Assembly (NCBI RefSeq): GCF_030013205.1
Contig: NZ_CP122648.1
Source of the DNA: Escherichia coli
GTDB lineage: Bacteria > Pseudomonadota > Gammaproteobacteria > Enterobacterales > Enterobacteriaceae
Reading direction: 5' to 3' (one strand)
Length of the DNA stretch: 64,000 nt
Position numbers and translations under genes: made by a program. The notes beneath the pieces were generated by a model that saw only the letters and a program-made list of their open reading frames with translations, had not been told where the DNA came from and did not search any database. This document shows, in pieces, positions 7,800-33,681 of this stretch (positions are counted from its first letter, which is position 1; every line of letters begins with the position of its first letter).

Positions 7800-8083
7800 T
7801 TTGACGTGGTTTGATGGCCTCCACGCACGTTGTGATATGTAGATGATAATCATTATCGCTTTACGGGTCCTTTCCGGTGATCCGACAGGTTACGGGGCGG
7901 CGACCTCGCGGGTTTTCGCTATTTATGAAAATTTTCCGGTTTAAGGTGTTTCCGTTCTTCTTCGTCGTAACTTAATGTTTTTATTTAAAATACCCCCTGA
8001 AAAGAAAGGAAACGACAGGTGCTGAAAGCGAGCTTTTTGGCCTCTGTCGTTTCCTTTCTCTGTTTTTGTCCGTGGAATGAGCA
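7800..8083 (+). other. Lambda-type cos site (cosQ/cosN/cosB); cosN 12-nt cohesive-end sequence GGGCGGCGACCT at 7895..7906
   Basis: The sequence around 7881-8083 matches the recalled junction of the lambda right and left ends (..TCCGACAGGTTACG | GGGCGGCGACCTCGCGGGTTTTCGCTATTTATGAAAATTTTCCGGTTTAAGG..), followed by the Nu1-like gene. Confidence 0.75.
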
Positions 8084-8629
8084 ATGGAAGTCAACAAAAA
8101 GCAGCTGGCTGACATTTTCGGTGCGAGTATCCGTACCATTCAGAACTGGCAGGAACAGGGAATGCCCGTTCTGCGAGGCGGTGGCAAGGGTAATGAGGTG
8201 CTTTATGACTCTGCCGCCGTTATAAGATGGTATGCCGAAAGGGATGCTGAAATTGAGAACGAAAAGCTGCGCCGGGAAGTTGAAGAACTGCGGCAGGCCA
8301 GCGAGACAGATCTCCAGCCAGGGACTATTGAGTACGAACGCCATCGACTTACGCGTGCGCAGGCCGACGCACAGGAGCTGAAAAATGCCAGAGACTCCGC
8401 TGAAGTGGTGGAAACCGCATTCTGTACTTTCGTGCTGTCGCGGATCGCAGGTGAAATTGCCAGTATTCTCGACGGGATCCCCCTGTCGGTGCAGCGGCGT
8501 TTTCCGGAACTGGAAAACCGACATGTTGATTTCCTGAAACGGGATATCATCAAAGCCATGAACAAAGCAGCCGCGCTGGATGAACTGATACCGGGGTTGC
8601 TGAGTGAATATATCGAACAGTCAGGTTAA
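8084..8629 (+). CDS. nohA: Terminase small subunit (lambda Nu1 homologue)
   Basis: 181 aa MEVNKKQLADIFGASIRTIQNWQEQGMPV..., essentially lambda Nu1 with a winged-HTH N-terminus. Confidence 0.85.
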   Translation: MEVNKKQLADIFGASIRTIQNWQEQGMPVLRGGGKGNEVLYDSAAVIRWYAERDAEIENEKLRREVEELRQASETDLQPGTIEYERHRLTRAQADAQELKNARDSAEVVETAFCTFVLSRIAGEIASILDGIPLSVQRRFPELENRHVDFLKRDIIKAMNKAAALDELIPGLLSEYIEQSG

Positions 8630-10088
8630 CAGGCTGCGGCATTTTGTCCGCGCCGGGCTTCGCTCACTGTTCAGGCCGGAGCCACAGACCGCCGTTGAAT
8701 GGGCGGATGCTAATTACTATCTCCCGAAAGAATCCGCATACCAGGAAGGGCGCTGGGAAACACTGCCCTTTCAGCGGGCCATCATGAATGCGATGGGCAG
8801 CGACTACATCCGTGAGGTGAATGTGGTGAAGTCTGCCCGTGTTGGTTATTCCAAAATGCTGCTGGGTGTTTATGCCTACTTCATAGAGCATAAGCAGCGC
8901 AACACCCTTATCTGGTTGCCGACGGATGGTGATGCCGAGAACTTTATGAAAACTCACGTTGAGCCGACCATCCGTGATATTCCTTCGCTGCTTGCGCTGG
9001 CCCCGTGGTATGGCAAAAAGCACCGGGATAACACGCTCACCATGAAGCGTTTCACCAATGGTCGTGGCTTCTGGTGCCTGGGCGGTAAAGCGGCAAAAAA
9101 CTACCGTGAAAAGTCGGTGGATGTGGCGGGTTATGATGAACTTGCTGCTTTTGATGATGATATTGAACAGGAAGGCTCTCCGACGTTCCTGGGTGACAAG
9201 CGTATTGAAGGCTCGGTCTGGCCAAAGTCCATCCGTGGCTCCACGCCCAAAGTGAGAGGCACCTGCCAGATTGAGCGTGCAGCCAGTGAATCCCCGCATT
9301 TTATGCGTTTTCATGTTGCCTGCCCGCACTGCGGGGAGGAGCAGTACCTTAAATTTGGCGATAAAGAGACGCCGTTTGGCCTCAAATGGACGCCGGATGA
9401 TCCCTCCAGCGTGTTTTATCTCTGCGAGCATAATGCCTGCGTCATCCGCCAGCAGGAGCTGGACTTTACTGATGCCCGTTATATCTGCGAAAAGACCGGG
9501 ATCTGGACCCGTGATGGCATTCTCTGGTTTTCGTCATCCGGTGAAGAGATTGAGCCGCCGGACAGTGTGACCTTTCACATCTGGACGGCGTACAGCCCGT
9601 TCACCACCTGGGTGCAGATTGTCAAAGACTGGATGAAAACGAAAGGGGATACGGGAAAACGTAAAACCTTCGTGAACACCACGCTCGGTGAGACGTGGGA
9701 AGCGAAAATCGGCGAACGTCCGGATGCTGAAGTGATGGCAGAGCGGAAAGAGCATTATTCAGCGCCCGTTCCTGACCGTGTGGCTTACCTGACCGCCGGT
9801 ATCGACTCCCAGCTGGACCGCTACGAAATGCGCGTATGGGGATGGGGGCCGGGTGAGGAAAGCTGGCTGATTGACCGGCAGATTATTATGGGCCGCCACG
9901 ACGATGAACAGACGCTGCTGCGTGTGGATGAGGCCATCAATAAAACCTATACCCGCCGGAATGGTGCAGAAATGTCGATATCCCGTATCTGCTGGGATAC
10001 TGGCGGGATTGACCCGACCATTGTGTATGAACGCTCGAAAAAGCATGGGCTGTTCCGGGTGATCCCCATTAAAGGGGCATCCGTCTAA
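8604..10088 (+). pseudogene. Terminase large subunit (lambda gpA homologue), N-terminal 494 codons only; truncated by an internal prophage deletion
   Basis: GTG start overlapping nohA; protein matches the recalled lambda gpA N-terminus up to ...[10 protein letters not shown], then a stop. Lambda continues YGKPVASMPRKRNKNG, which is absent here. Confidence 0.8.
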
Positions 10089-10149
10089 GGGACGCTTCCT
10101 GAACAACATTAACGCGGTCAGTAAAACAGACTTTGCTGATAAGCGTGGT

Positions 10150-11904
10150 ATGCGTTATGTGCGGGTTAACGCTCCTGCAGGTGCAACATCTGGAAAATAT
10201 TACCCTGTTGTTGTTATGCGTTCTGCTGGCTCAGTAAGCGAACTGGCATCAAGGGTCATTATCACCACGGCACCGCGAACCGCAGGCGATCCGATGAATA
10301 ACTGCGAGTTTAACGGATTTGTTATGCCTGGTGGCTGGACTGACAGGGGGCGTTATGCTTATGGAATGTTCTGGCAATATCAAAACAATGAACGAGCCAT
10401 CCACTCAATAATGATGAGTAATAAGGGCGATGATTTGCGCTCTGTGTTCTATGTTGATGGCGCTGCTTTCCCTGTTTTTGCGTTTATCGAAGATGGCCTG
10501 TCAATATCCGCACCTGGTGCTGATCTCGTTGTTAATGATACGACCTATAAGTTTGGGGCAACAAATCCAGCGACTGAATGTATCGCGGCGGACGTTATCC
10601 TTGATTTTAAGAGTGGGCGTGGTTTTTATGAGTCTCATTCGTTAATCGTTAACGATAACTTGTCGTGCAAAAAACTTTTTGCCACAGACGAAATTGTAGC
10701 GCGTGGTGGTAATCAGATTCGAATGATAGGTGGGGAGTATGGTGCATTATGGCGTAATGATGGCGCTAAAACTTACCTGCTGCTTACCAATCAAGGTGAT
10801 GTTTATGGTGGCTGGAATACATTAAGACCGTTTGCTATTGATAACGCAACCGGCGAACTGGTTATTGGAACCAAACTGTCCGCAAGTCTGAACGGTAATG
10901 CATTAACAGCAACAAAGCTGCAAACGCCAAGACTGGTTTCTGGTGTTGAGTTTGATGGTTCCAAAGATATTACTTTAACCGCCGCGCATGTGGCTGCTTT
11001 TGCCAGAAGGGCAACGGATACATATGCCGATGCGGATGGTGGCGTTCCCTGGAATGCCGAATCAGGCGCTTACAATGTCACCCGCTCTGGCAACAGCTAT
11101 ATTCTGGTTAACTTCTATACCGGAGTCGGAAGTTGCCGGACATTGCAGATGAAGGCGCATTACAGAAATGGAGGTCTGTTCTACCGTTCCTCAAGAGATG
11201 GCTATGGTTTTGAGGAAGACTGGGCAGAAGTTTATACCTCGAAAAATCTTCCACCAGAAAGCTACCCAGTCGGTGCACCAATCCCGTGGCCATCAGATAC
11301 CGTTCCGTCTGGTTATGCCCTGATGCAGGGGCAGACTTTTGACAAATCTGCTTACCCGAAACTTGCAGCCGCTTATCCGTCAGGCGTGATCCCTGATATG
11401 CGTGGCTGGACGATTAAGGGCAAACCTGCCAGTGGTCGGGCCGTATTGTCTCAGGAACAGGACGGCATTAAATCGCACACCCACAGCGCCAGCGCATCCA
11501 GTACGGATTTGGGGACGAAAACCACATCGTCGTTTGATTACGGCACTAAATCCACGAATAACACCGGGGCGCATACCCATAGTGTTAGCGGTACGGCTGC
11601 TTCAGCCGGTGCACATACCCATTCGATAACATTTGTTTCAGGTGGCACCAAAGGTGCTCCGGGAAGTGGATCACCTGATTATTCTAAATACAGTGTTAAC
11701 ACTTCTTCTGCAGGCGCTCATACGCACTCTGTATCGGGTACTGCTGCAAGCGCAGGTGCACACGCACATACTGTAGGTATTGGTGCGCATACGCACTCGG
11801 TTGCGATTGGTTCACATGGACACACCATCACCGTTAACGCTGCTGGTAACGCGGAAAACACCGTCAAAAACATCGCATTTAACTATATTGTGAGGCTTGC
11901 ATAA
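10150..11904 (+). CDS. stfQ: Side tail fibre protein fragment (Stf-like C-terminal region)
   Basis: 584 aa ORF with repeated GAHTHS motifs near the C-terminus, typical of lambda Stf / T-even long-tail-fibre tips; followed by a Tfa gene; upstream end abuts the terminase deletion junction. Confidence 0.6.
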
Positions 11905-12479
11905 TGGCATTCAGAATGAGTGAACAACCACGGACCATAAAAATTTATAATCTGCTGGCCGGAACTAATGAATTTATTGGTGAAGGTGATGCATATATTC
12001 CGCCTCATACAGGTCTGCCAGCAAACAGTACCGATATTGCACCGCCAGATATTCCGGCTGGCTTCGTGGCTGTTTTCAACAGTGATGAGTCATCGTGGCA
12101 TCTCGTTGAAGATCATCGGGGTAAAACGGTTTATGACGTGGCTTCCGGCGACGCGTTATTTATTTCTGAACTCGGTCCGTTACCGGAAAATGTTACCTGG
12201 TTATCGCCGGAAGGGGAGTTTCAGAAGTGGAACGGCACAGCCTGGGTGAAGGATACGGAAGCAGAAAAACTGTTCCGGATCCGGGAGGCGGAAGAAACAA
12301 AAAACAACCTGATGCAGGTAGCCAGTGAGCATATTGCGCCGCTTCAGGATGCTGCAGATCTGGAAATCGCAACGGAGGAAGAAATCTCGTTGCTGGAAGC
12401 ATGGAAAAAGTATCGGGTATTGCTGAACCGTGTTGATACGTCAACTGCACAGGATATTGAATGGCCAGCACTGCCGTAG
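11904..12479 (+). CDS. tfaQ: Tail fibre assembly protein (Tfa family)
   Basis: 191 aa; start overlaps the stf stop; conserved Tfa C-terminal region. Confidence 0.8.
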
Positions 12480-12576
12480 GGTAAAACATATAAATTCTAT
12501 AATTAGATGTATCTTTCCATTTACGGCAAGGAAGGGGGCTTGGAAGACGTAAAGCATCTCACACCGAGATTATTTT

Positions 12577-13167
12577 TTATATGTCAGGTGTCTGAAGTTT
12601 TGCTTTGGCTCTTAAAATGGTTTGCCGCGAGGTTTTGAATTCCCGGGCAATGGCACTTATACTTACACCTGACTTAATTCGTTCGAATACCGCCTGTTTC
12701 TGTTCTTCATTTAACACAGGTGGTCGACCAAAACGTTTCCCTGCGCCGCGGGCACTTACTATCCCGGAATGAGTGCGTTCAAGTAAAAGGTCTCGTTCAA
12801 ATTCAGCGACTGCTGAAATTACTTGCATCATCATTTTTCCTGTTGGACTGGTCAGGTCAATGCCCCCCAATGCTAAGCAATGCACTCTGATACCTGTTTC
12901 GGTCAGTTGTTCCACTGTTTTCCTGATATCCATTGCATTACAACCAAGGCGATCCAGTTTTGTCACAATCAATTGATCACCACATTTCAGGCGAGCAAGC
13001 AACCGGTTAAAACCAGGACGCTCACTGGTTGCTGCTGAGCCGCTAATGTGTTCTTCGATTATTTGCTGAGGTTTGATTTTAAAACCTGCACTTTCGATTT
13101 CCCGGCGTTGATTTTCGGTGGTCTGATCCAGCGTTGATATCCGACAGTAAGCAAAAATTCGAGACAT
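12577..13167 (-). CDS. pinQ: Serine recombinase / DNA invertase (Pin family)
   Basis: 196 aa; N-terminal resolvase catalytic domain (YCRISTLDQ with catalytic Ser) and C-terminal HTH; convergent with tfa. Confidence 0.8.
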
Positions 13168-13483
13168 AGTGAGACTCTATACGAAATTGGTGTTCATATC
13201 ATAATGCATCTCAGAAAATAATTATGATTATTTTTGTGCATATTTGTATGTACACGTTCGAAAATAAACGAATGCGTATGCAACCCCGTAATTTTGGTGA
13301 GACCCAAAATCGATTTTGTGAAAAATGGCTTTAACTCGGTTTGTTTTTCGAGTTCCGGGCGGACTCAAGGAAGAAGAATAGTGTTGCGTGTTATTTTAAC
13401 CAGATTTCAAGTTGTTTGGTCGTGGAAAAGTGGAGCAAAATGTTGTTAAAGTGGAAAAATGATAAAAAAGTAAGTTTATTATA

Positions 13484-13717
13484 TTACATTTTACCATTTA
13501 AATTTTGGTTGTCTTTAAGAACTGATATCGCTGTTTGTAATAATTCTTTGTTATCCAGCCATGATTTTTTCTTTATGTTTCCTTCAATGTAATCAAGCAA
13601 TGTTCTGGTATTGATAGGTCTTCCCTGTTTTGCTACTTCCACTACAGCATCCCCTAGGATAATTCTTACTTCAGGAAGCTGCGCAGGGAACCACTTTAGG
13701 GTGTCTTTTGATTTCAT
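13484..13717 (-). CDS. ydfK: Small prophage protein YdfK-like (77 aa)
   Basis: ORF 13484..13750; internal ATG at 13715-13717 with an AAGGAA Shine-Dalgarno-like sequence gives 77 aa. Confidence 0.55.
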   Translation of the reverse strand: MKSKDTLKWFPAQLPEVRIILGDAVVEVAKQGRPINTRTLLDYIEGNIKKKSWLDNKELLQTAISVLKDNQNLNGKM

Positions 13718-14502: not shown

Positions 14503-15786
14503 ATGGATTTCCAGTTATATTCGCTCGGCGCAGCGTTAGTGTTTCATGAAATATTTTTTCCTGAATCATCAACGGCAATGGCGTTAATTCTGGCAATGGG
14601 AACCTACGGTGCAGGTTATGTGGCGCGTATTGTCGGAGCATTTATTTTCGGCAAAATGGGCGACAGAATCGGGCGTAAAAAAGTGCTCTTTATTACCATC
14701 ACTATGATGGGGATCTGTACTACCTTAATTGGTGTGCTGCCGACCTATGCACAAATTGGTGTGTTTGCGCCAATTTTGCTGGTGACGCTGCGTATTATTC
14801 AGGGGCTGGGGGCAGGCGCGGAAATTTCCGGTGCCGGCACGATGCTGGCGGAATATGCACCAAAAGGTAAGCGCGGAATTATCTCCTCATTTGTTGCTAT
14901 GGGGACTAACTGCGGAACCTTGAGCGCAACGGCAATCTGGGCCTTTATGTTCTTCATTCTCAGTAAAGAGGAACTGCTTGCGTGGGGATGGCGTATACCG
15001 TTCCTGGCGAGCGTTGTCGTGATGGTCTTTGCTATCTGGTTGCGTATGAATCTGAAAGAAAGCCCGGTCTTTGAGAAGGTTAACGACAGCAACCAACCGA
15101 CAGCAAAACCTGCACCTGCTGGTAGCATGTTCCAGAGCAAATCCTTCTGGCTGGCAACAGGGCTGCGTTTTGGTCAGGCTGGTAACTCCGGTTTAATTCA
15201 GACTTTCCTTGCAGGCTATTTAGTGCAGACGTTATTGTTTAACAAAGCAATTCCAACAGATGCATTGATGATCAGTTCGATTCTCGGCTTTATGACCATT
15301 CCGTTCCTTGGTTGGTTATCCGATAAAATAGGTCGCCGGATCCCGTATATTATTATGAATACCTCTGCGATTGTGCTGGCGTGGCCAATGCTTTCTATCA
15401 TCGTAGATAAAAGCTATGCCCCGAGCACCATTATGGTTGCACTGATTGTGATTCATAACTGTGCGGTGCTGGGATTATTTGCTCTGGAAAACATTACCAT
15501 GGCAGAAATGTTCGGCTGTAAAAACCGCTTTACCCGGATGGCGATTTCTAAAGAAATTGGTGGTCTTATCGCTTCCGGTTTTGGTCCTATCCTGGCGGGT
15601 ATTTTCTGCACCATGACGGAATCCTGGTATCCGATCGCCATTATGATCATGGCATATTCAGTGATTGGTTTAATCTCTGCGCTGAAAATGCCAGAAGTGA
15701 GAGACCGTGATTTAAGTGCACTGGAAGATGCCGCGGAAGATCAACCGCGTGTTGTAACAGCTGCGCAACCTTCAAGAAGTCTGTAA
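14503..15786 (+). CDS. ydfJ: MFS metabolite:H+ symporter-family transporter, apparently N-terminally truncated by the prophage insertion
   Basis: 427 aa polytopic membrane protein starting in what looks like the first transmembrane helix (MDFQLYSLGAALVFHEIFFP); an in-frame stop lies immediately upstream; a phage non-coding region precedes it. Confidence 0.7.
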   Translation: MDFQLYSLGAALVFHEIFFPESSTAMALILAMGTYGAGYVARIVGAFIFGKMGDRIGRKKVLFITITMMGICTTLIGVLPTYAQIGVFAPILLVTLRIIQGLGAGAEISGAGTMLAEYAPKGKRGIISSFVAMGTNCGTLSATAIWAFMFFILSKEELLAWGWRIPFLASVVVMVFAIWLRMNLKESPVFEKVNDSNQPTAKPAPAGSMFQSKSFWLATGLRFGQAGNSGLIQTFLAGYLVQTLLFNKAIPTDALMISSILGFMTIPFLGWLSDKIGRRIPYIIMNTSAIVLAWPMLSIIVDKSYAPSTIMVALIVIHNCAVLGLFALENITMAEMFGCKNRFTRMAISKEIGGLIASGFGPILAGIFCTMTESWYPIAIMIMAYSVIGLISALKMPEVRDRDLSALEDAAEDQPRVVTAAQPSRSL

Positions 15787-33035: not shown

Positions 33036-33470
33036 TTACGGCAGGACTTTCTTAAGCAAATGCTCAAGTGTTGCCACTTCGTCCGCGGTCAGGTTTTTTG
33101 TTAATTCTTGATGCAGGTCCTGGCCAACTAATTGATGGCATTGTTCACATATTGCCGCGCCGCTGGTGGTAAGTTTTACCAGTACGCCGCGCTTGTCATT
33201 CGGGTTCGGCAACCTTTCCACCCAGCCTTTACAGACCAGGCGATCCAGCATACGGGTCAGCGCCCCCAGGTCGACCGATAACACTCTTTTCAGTTCAACC
33301 GGAGTAATACACGCCGCGCAGCGGATAGAGCAGAGCACCTTAAACTGTGCCGCGGTAATATCCAGCGGAGACAGATACTCGTTAAGCAGGCGATCTTTCT
33401 TCTGATTAACCATATGGATTAAGCGACCCAATGGAATAATTTCATTGAACAGATCGCTGGTACTTTTCAC
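33036..33470 (-). CDS. marR: MarR-family repressor MarR
   Basis: 144 aa winged-helix protein upstream of marA in the same operon. Confidence 0.9.
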
Positions 33471-33681
33471 ATTAGTTGCCCTGGCAAGTAATTAGTTGCA
33501 GGGGATAATATTGCCCAGGCAAGTATAAGTCAAATGAATGAATTGACCGATGCCACGTTTTGCTAAATCGGTTCAAGTTTTGGTCAGTGCGATGCAAGGC
33601 TAGCTAAAGAGTGACACTTTATCGTTGTTTACCCCTTATACTTTTCGCTGATAACCCAGATACACAGGATAACAACCACCA
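33471..33681. promoter_or_regulatory. marO control region (divergent marRAB and marC promoters; MarR operator palindromes containing TTGCC/GGCAA)
   Basis: GTTGCCCTGGCAAGTAATTAGTTGCAGGGGATAATATTGCCCAGGCAAG at about 33465-33520 contains TTGCC...GGCAA inverted repeats, as in the recalled marO. Confidence 0.6.

Follow-up and report, generated by a model that had tools for sequence, protein, structure and literature searches.

A TA dinucleotide in the side tail fibre gene recurs as a deletion endpoint in lambdoid prophages of Escherichia coli, including an allele of the cryptic prophage Qin

Introduction

Qin is a well-known cryptic prophage of Escherichia coli; in strain K-12 its right part has the gene order nohA-stfQ-tfaQ-pinQ-ydfK next to the truncated host gene ydfJ'. 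Here we describe a new Qin allele in a 64,000-nt stretch of an E. coli chromosome (contig NZ_CP122648.1; hereafter the window, to which coordinates refer unless another sequence is named). In this allele a truncated terminase large subunit gene (A') is joined to the 3' part of a side tail fibre gene (stf), and the stf endpoint of the join recurs in other prophages. The window shares with K-12 Qin the chromosomal site, the flanks and the order from ydfU/quuQ to ydfJ', at 98.8–99.6% nucleotide identity outside the junction, but retains a 1.48-kb A' fragment and ~0.9 kb of stf that K-12 lacks. The intact phages with which it can be compared are lambda and 2H10 (Glaedevirus). The left part of the element is 98.4–98.9% identical to lambda-type cos-Nu1-A and the right part is 95.8% identical to the stf-tfa-invertase region of 2H10, a phage that carries both parts in one genome and in the same order. 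In the intact phages, the two TA dinucleotides that meet in the window are separated by 19 kb of head and tail genes.

Microhomology-mediated illegitimate recombination, or alternative end joining, gives rise in E. coli to large deletions with 2–4 nt of microhomology and no template insertion. The junctions described here are alike in these respects; they differ in that one endpoint is fixed to the base over many events, the dinucleotide is always TA and the retained end is unresected. Deletions with one fixed endpoint are also known. Int-promoted b deletions of lambda end in att, and other deletions are anchored at the nick sites of the rolling-circle origins of M13 and pC194. These resemble the present junctions in having one fixed endpoint and variable partners with few matching bases, but the sites described here, one in stf and one in the terminase small subunit gene Nu1, are neither att sites nor known origins. 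Fixed-endpoint illegitimate recombination is thus a known kind of event, and the recurrent breakpoint is the part that is worth following up. Accounts of prophage domestication usually invoke random deletions on which selection acts as a filter; cuts at one and the same base in stf, and likewise in Nu1, in many independent lineages would point to a specific molecular agent to look for.

Results

An earlier note on the window, made by a model from the sequence alone, had placed a terminase/stf deletion junction in the interval between the two open reading frames (ORFs). Alignment with lambda and 2H10 confirmed that such a junction exists and identified a 2H10-type stf as the right parent, but put the breakpoint at a TA dinucleotide at the end of the first ORF; the apparent gap is stf coding sequence. 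The features of the join are as follows.

10086 to 10087, no strand assigned: deletion junction, TA common to both parents (A, GTC TA CGG; stf, CGA TA AGG), from a three-way alignment with lambda A and 2H10 stf and from the overlap of the BLAST pieces (query 2087–2088)
8604 to 10088, plus strand: truncated terminase large subunit A', codons 1–494 plus a TAA made by the junction, from identity to lambda gpA; a RefSeq pseudogene without its C-terminus
10086 to 11904, plus strand: stf remnant, a 2H10/StfR-type side tail fibre from codon 512 to its end, with a callable ORF from the ATG at 10150, from nucleotide identity and Pfam; a RefSeq pseudogene without its N-terminus

A megablast search of 8000–12600 against phage genomes returned two clean pieces. 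The left one (8000–10087) matched lambda-type cos-Nu1-A (98.4–98.9% identity), and the right one (10086–12600) matched the stf-tfa-invertase region of phages 2H10, PhiR34_1 and Kati (95.8–98.6% identity). At the crossover lambda A reads ...GCATCCGTC TA CGGAAAG and intact stf reads ...ATACCCGA TA AGGGACGC, whereas the window reads ...GCATCCGTC TA AGGGACGC. The join therefore has a 2-bp overlap and zero inserted bases, with both flanks colinear with their parents. It converts the TAC codon for Tyr495 of lambda gpA into TA+A, a stop codon at 10086–10088. The stf frame is open from 10063, and the sequence at 10087–11904 follows the 1117-aa Stf of 2H10 colinearly from codon 512 on, so that the 61 nt ahead of the ATG (10089–10149) are in-frame stf codons 512–532 with no spacer. 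Measured on 2H10, whose two TAs are at positions 2937 and 21896, the deletion spans 18,959 bp, from A codon 495 to stf codon 511. It removed the end of A, all of W, B, C, Nu3, D, E, FI, FII, Z, U, V, G, T, H, M, L, K, I, J and lom, and the first 511 stf codons.

A single colinear parental genome, the TA overlap and the lack of foreign DNA are the marks of a simple microhomology-mediated deletion. A direct A/stf join without an insertion sequence (IS) end does not fit an IS-mediated adjacent deletion. Around the junction we found no meaningful direct or inverted repeats, and at the site there was no significant hairpin (z-scores −0.4 to −1.8), only a CCC/GGG mini-stem. An assembly artefact is excluded because the junction is present at 100% identity in finished chromosomes; the whole window is identical in this way to chromosomes of swine enterotoxigenic E. 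coli (ETEC) and O139:H1 strains, for example K_EC180. Very probably, to judge from the alignments, the scar arose by a single illegitimate join across the 2-bp TA that removed a contiguous ~19-kb block of a lambda/2H10-like prophage at the Qin site. The scar has no function of its own and, taken on its own, is ordinary.

The first sign that this endpoint is not confined to the window came from the Rac prophage of strain NCTC9087, in which a terminase small subunit of a different type is joined to stf at the same base. Public collections were searched for such junctions, at first by the right flank of the site and later by proteins that carry the post-site Stf peptide behind foreign N-termini; in each case the DNA was retrieved and the partner was traced to its uninterrupted parent. 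Eleven different, independent junctions at the same stf TA (ten plus that of the window) were found, ten retaining the right side of stf and one the left side.

Right side of stf retained, partner lambda A (the window): microhomology TA
Right side retained, partner Rac-type TerS: microhomology TA
Right side retained, partner Nu1: microhomology GATA
Right side retained, partner K: microhomology ATA, in frame
Right side retained, partner ydaY: microhomology ATA
Right side retained, partner J: microhomology ATAA, in frame
Right side retained, partner a gene in the tape-measure position: microhomology TA
Right side retained, partner ynaK (ParB-like): microhomology TA, in frame
Right side retained, partner a PF20691 gene next to ynaK: microhomology TAA, in frame
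Right side retained, partner L: microhomology TAA, in frame
Left side retained (strain UMNF18), stf ...CCCGATAA joined to sequence flanking a GIY-YIG nuclease gene on its 3' side: microhomology TAA

TA was present at the crossover in the parents of all eleven partners, with 2–4 nt of microhomology. The events span two stf alleles, AAGGGACGC and the K-12-type AAGGGATGC (CGC and TGC, respectively; K-12 stfR carries the site in the TGC allele), and were found in Qin-like and Rac-like prophages from unrelated samples. Other stf endpoints exist (nt 145, 362, 782, 1307 and 1353; aa 353, 450, 459, 598 and 610; and the K-12 endpoint), and the single stf TA accounts for about half of all junction classes found. 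We also considered 58 viral contigs carrying the right flank of the site, a sample that we regard as unbiased in that any endpoint to the left of the site is equally detectable. Here, 3 of ~9 distinct lom/stf junction classes fell on this TA, among ~2,100 positions. Thus one endpoint recurs with strict use of TA. The comparisons indicate that it is most likely a break-prone TA that has been reused repeatedly in other strains, not a random position.

A codon-degenerate pattern search revealed no further alleles of the site, the K-12-type TGC allele having needed a separate search, and a metagenome scan for junction-only variants of the site found none. Among species-representative genomes there was one intact copy, on a contig of a metagenome-assembled genome labelled Collinsella sp. 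Two of the proteins recovered, tail fibre fragments P0038 and P0068, appear in public records as 'short-chain fatty acid transporter, partial', probably by annotation error. Full-text literature searches, which were not exhaustive, yielded no description of a base-exact, multi-lineage breakpoint in stf and Nu1.

A second recurrent breakpoint lies in Nu1 and is intact in the window.

8573 to 8590, plus strand: GCGCTG-N10-TA with its TA at 8589–8590 (lambda 696–697, Nu1 codon 169), joined to at least five right partners in other contigs
Contig L042, Nu1 TA joined to the stf hot spot
Contig L046, Nu1 TA joined to stf at about nt 145: microhomology TAC
Contig L022, Nu1 TA joined to lom: TA
Contig L020, Nu1 TA joined to Z: TA
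Contigs L082/L085, Nu1 TA joined to another tail fibre gene

When all classes were counted, ~15 of 19 junctions cross at TA. The second junction in L020 follows a different pattern. This contig (~1405–2180) carries a complex remnant in which Nu1 is joined to Z, followed by an inversion joining lambda 8323 to 9292 and then by stf nt 1353; the inversion junction uses GGG, and thus not every rearrangement in these elements is TA-based.

In an ungapped alignment, 14 of 24 positions match between the stf and Nu1 sites, which have the form GCGCTG-N10-TA in common. Across its 24.5 kb, the left arm of 2H10 contains 791 TAs and 55 oriented copies of GCGCTG, and exactly two occurrences of GCGCTG-N10-TA, which are the two hot spots. 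In lambda the motif occurs once among 2,170 TAs, at the Nu1 site. One partner that was used a single time (contig L071) carries it inverted, as TA-N10-CAGCGC. That the two sites are the only ones of this form in the left arm of 2H10 suggests a site-directed break, as far as sequence can tell. A trial of the motif at a further site near ydfU was confounded by an ordinary gene-boundary mosaic there.

We then asked what the deletion has left in the window. In agreement with the earlier note, A' matches gpA up to the stop at 10086–10088, and the ORF that follows is Stf-like and in another frame. The A' ORF is identical to residues 1–494 of the 641-aa lambda gpA (494/494 aa); the 22 nucleotide differences from lambda A are all synonymous, with no non-synonymous change. 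A' has therefore not decayed since it ceased to be a working gene, so that either the deletion is young or the left arm was lately refreshed by recombination. The GpA_ATPase domain is complete in Pfam, whereas the GpA_nuclease match ends at profile position 177 of 294. With 494 of 641 residues, ~40% of the nuclease domain missing and the whole C-terminus gone, including its portal-binding end, A' is not a functional gpA. The ORF from the ATG at 10150 encodes 584 aa with GAHTHS repeats and the Pfam domains Gp34_trimer, Collar, Phage_fiber and gp37_C. It is not a functional Stf either: codons 1–511, which include the N-terminal domain, are absent, and the C-terminal 606 codons are left. RefSeq already marks both A' and 'stf as pseudogenes.

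Also as the note had it, portal, head, tail-tube and tape-measure genes are absent, with none between the stf ORF and ydfJ, while cos (cosN at 7895), Nu1, a Q homologue and lysis genes are retained. Because the morphogenesis genes are lost, the terminase fragment is dead and the 3' part of stf is promoterless, the element cannot build particles.

The earlier note had further taken this deletion to be the one that made the prophage defective, a claim that did not survive comparison with other Qin alleles. The junction of the window was present in 13 of 5,426 complete genomes, plus one copy with IS66, all from swine or wild boar. The IS66 copy (tnpA, tnpB and tnpC), a secondary event, lies inside A' of an otherwise window-type Qin in E. 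coli O139:H1 W13-16 (L068, 383–2971). Comparison with K-12 Qin showed that the element is Qin and that the K-12 junction differs: there, Nu1 codon ~177 (window-equivalent 8612) is joined to the middle of a different stf allele. In strain 11PC, A codon ~490 (window-equivalent 10071) is joined across TA to stf codon ~261, 751 nt upstream of the window endpoint. In strain 2020CK-00188, A codon ~395 (9786) is joined through GCTT to stf codon ~355, 470 nt upstream of the window endpoint.

Although the K-12 junction could be nested inside that of the window, the 11PC and 2020CK-00188 junctions cannot, since the window retains more A but less stf than either. The alleles of the window, 11PC and 2020CK-00188 thus cannot be derived from one another by further deletion, and therefore the morphogenesis block was lost independently several times at the Qin locus. 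On these alignments the deletion in the window is not the single event that made Qin defective. The 2020CK-00188 junction creates an in-frame gpA(1–~395)::Stf(~355–end) fusion of 1172 aa (L067, 2005–5523). This is a deletion product and not a real terminase, and RefSeq labels it as an intact 'terminase gpA endonuclease subunit'. By itself, the scar matters for annotation only, as two pseudogenes of a Qin variant confined to a swine-associated E. coli lineage. With cos and Nu1 intact, the terminase of a helper phage could in principle act on this Qin variant.

Discussion

The most likely reason for the recurrence, by inference, is the following series of steps. A strand break would be introduced repeatedly at or beside the stf TA, and the broken end would pair through TA (2–4 nt) before ligation. 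If both hot spots were broken, a direct Nu1-stf join would result, as in L042; if one was broken, its end would join to any TA reached elsewhere in the prophage. In a broader form, the proposal is that breakage in E. coli lambdoid prophages is directed by sequence to a few specific TA sites (GCGCTG-N10-TA) and repeatedly excises the whole morphogenesis module between Nu1/A and stf. This would be directed inactivation in place of random decay, the candidate agents being a defence or homing nuclease, a transposase-like enzyme or a terminase acting off target. We regard this proposal as a tentative one, somewhat less probable than not. Polymerase chain reaction (PCR) across the Nu1-stf junction in lysogens would provide a simple assay for how bacteria disarm prophages.

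Several points weigh against site-directed breakage. The motif was spotted after the sites had been seen, and its rough corrected significance is p~1e-3. A third GCGCTG-N10-TA site, in the 3' part of some stf alleles, has no junction in 21–23 copies. Searches anchored on a pattern favour finding events at the stf site, and these junctions are rare in complete genomes (at most ~100 of 5,426, judged from rank positions). The retained ends lack any nibbling, which is unusual for simple double-strand-break repair in E. coli.

Of the rival explanations, the one with most weight is a sequence-specific endonuclease or recombinase that reads GCGCTG-N10-TA or something similar and cuts with a 2-nt TA stagger, a geometry of the type IIS/IIB or of the GIY-YIG homing or defence kind; two cuts would be ligated directly, whereas the end left by a single cut would find a distant TA. 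The motif is present at both multi-partner sites, the sole such sites in the left arm of 2H10, and L071 has it inverted. The L042 junction is an exact Nu1-TA/stf-TA join, TA is at the crossover in 11 of 11 partner parents, and the other stf endpoints cluster around the site (aa 436–610). These points are offset by the post hoc nature of the motif and the unused third site, as well as by most partners lacking the motif and by the confounded ydfU trial; moreover, we know of no enzyme with GCGCTG-N10-TA specificity. A nuclease of this kind is therefore a plausible candidate, with perhaps one chance in three of being right.

Known recognition sequences were also compared with the site. Chi, dif, Ter, the lambda att core, the topoisomerase IB sequence CCCTT, the gyrase consensus and the DnaG CTG start gave no convincing fit. 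The same was true of an EcoP1I AGACC site 23–24 nt upstream, which is 1–3 nt off the canonical cut.

An agent within the element itself is the lambda-type terminase, which might nick off target, the 3' end at the nick being kept and re-annealing ahead through TA. The strand whose 3' end would be kept partly resembles the cosN N1 nick (TTACG^GGGCGGCGACCT) at both hot spots: cos has TTACG^GGG, Nu1 has ATACC^GGG and the bottom strand of stf has TTATC^GGG (TAYS^GGG). In 15 of 16 events (Nu1 left in 5 of 5, stf right in 10 of 11) the side that survives is the one on which the 3' end is predicted, although the same directionality would be expected if only prophage-internal deletions were tolerated. 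The true cos N1 end also occurs once as a junction endpoint, with TAC microhomology, and the terminase genes lie in the same element. However, 11 TA[CT][CG]GGG sites are present in the left arm of lambda, of which only the Nu1 site is used and ten are unused, and Rac-type prophages, whose terminase is of another kind, account for five of the stf events. We consider off-target nicking by terminase unlikely, at rather less than half the weight of a specific nuclease.

The cos N1 endpoint just mentioned is a single junction type, found in two contigs (L032, ~10233–10250, and L038, from IMG/VR). Its left side stops one base short of the cosN N1 nick (...GGTTAC|) and TAC links it to lom. The junction has the appearance of a cos end that terminase cut and an illegitimate event rejoined.

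Tc1/IS630-type transposases choose TA as their target. The use of TA at every crossover without exception, the single fixed site and the lack of specificity among the TA targets would fit a TA-targeting transposase acting on a cryptic end, or a deletion next to an IS that was later lost. Lambda has an IS30 hot spot at 33244–33498 (PMC9333248), but this is unrelated in sequence to the stf site, and no IS sequence was found at any junction. IS involvement is unsupported, and we think it improbable.

It might also be supposed that no special mechanism is at work, and that chance, ascertainment or selection for a particular Stf fragment produced the pattern. Apart from the anchoring of the searches, this view could draw on 3 of the 10 right-retained junctions (the window, TerS and ydaY), which put a TAA stop in the frame of the left gene exactly at the join. 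Against it stand the joining of eleven different partners to a single nucleotide, seen in the CGC and the TGC allele of stf alike, and the unbiased sample, in which so many classes at a single position correspond to roughly p~2e-5. Selection, for its part, cannot hold an endpoint to an exact base, and the products include in-frame as well as out-of-frame joins. A recurrence that is exact to the base is beyond what chance, ascertainment and selection can account for, and we give this explanation very little credence.

Serine recombinases cut with a 2-bp stagger. Cleavage by PinQ or PinR of a pseudo-site with a TA core, for which identical cores would be needed, is the least likely of the explanations: pin lies 2.5 kb downstream in most of these contexts, but the core AAACC-NN-GGTTT of the 26-bp Din-family invertase crossover site (hix/gix/cix/pix) is not matched at or near the site, with two or fewer mismatches allowed in 10000–13700, the partner sites share TA only, and at several of the loci that bear a junction tfa has no pin gene beside it.

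Other features of the window

The assignment of the prophage to the right part of Qin at ydfJ rests on RefSeq annotation of an identical chromosome and on comparison with MG1655. The element adjoins the truncated host gene ydfJ, with ydfI from 15876 onward, and its genes are in the order ydfU, quuQ/ydfT, cspF, cspB, essQ, ydfR, rrrQ, rzpQ, cspI, gnsB, ydfO, ynfO, nohA, A', 'stf, tfaQ, pinQ, ydfK, ynfT, ydfJ'. This order is colinear with K-12 by BLAST; outside the junction the gene content is that of the known cryptic prophage, with the Q homologue and lysis genes kept alongside cos and Nu1. The remaining features near the junction are these.

7895 to 7906, plus strand: cosN, 12-nt cohesive end GGGCGGCGACCT, with lambda-like cosQ and cosB flanks; an exact 12-mer, with ~330 nt around it nearly identical to lambda
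8084 to 8629, plus strand: nohA, intact Nu1-type terminase small subunit, 181 aa; Pfam Phage_Nu1, E=2e-101; named nohA in the identical RefSeq chromosome
11904 to 12479, plus strand: tfaQ, tail fibre assembly protein, intact; Pfam Caudo_TAP, E=4e-43, and RefSeq annotation
12577 to 13167, minus strand: pinQ, serine recombinase of the invertase family; Pfam Resolvase and HTH_7
14503 to 15786, plus strand: ydfJ', host gene truncated at its N-terminus, where Qin ends on the right; annotated in RefSeq for the identical chromosome and for K-12

The stf-tfa-invertase arrangement is common to the window and the functional phage 2H10. The pinQ gene is intact, and no invertible segment or recognisable crossover site was found beside it. 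The genes annotated in the first ~9 kb past ydfJ are ydfI, ydfZ, rspR, ydfG, dcp, ydeI and dgcZ.

At the other end of the prophage segment, about 30% of E. coli records cease to be similar within a few bases of the ydfU stop codon (1170–1195). This sharp module boundary, just before the Q gene, has a further GCGCTG-N10-TA site 5–10 nt away. Rac and Qin have paralogous, near-identical right arms (stf-tfa-pin-ynaE/ydfK-ynaM/ynfT). In K-12 Rac, the truncated ParB-like gene ynaK overlaps ydaY, which marks another deletion junction inside Rac (L074, 1378–1981).

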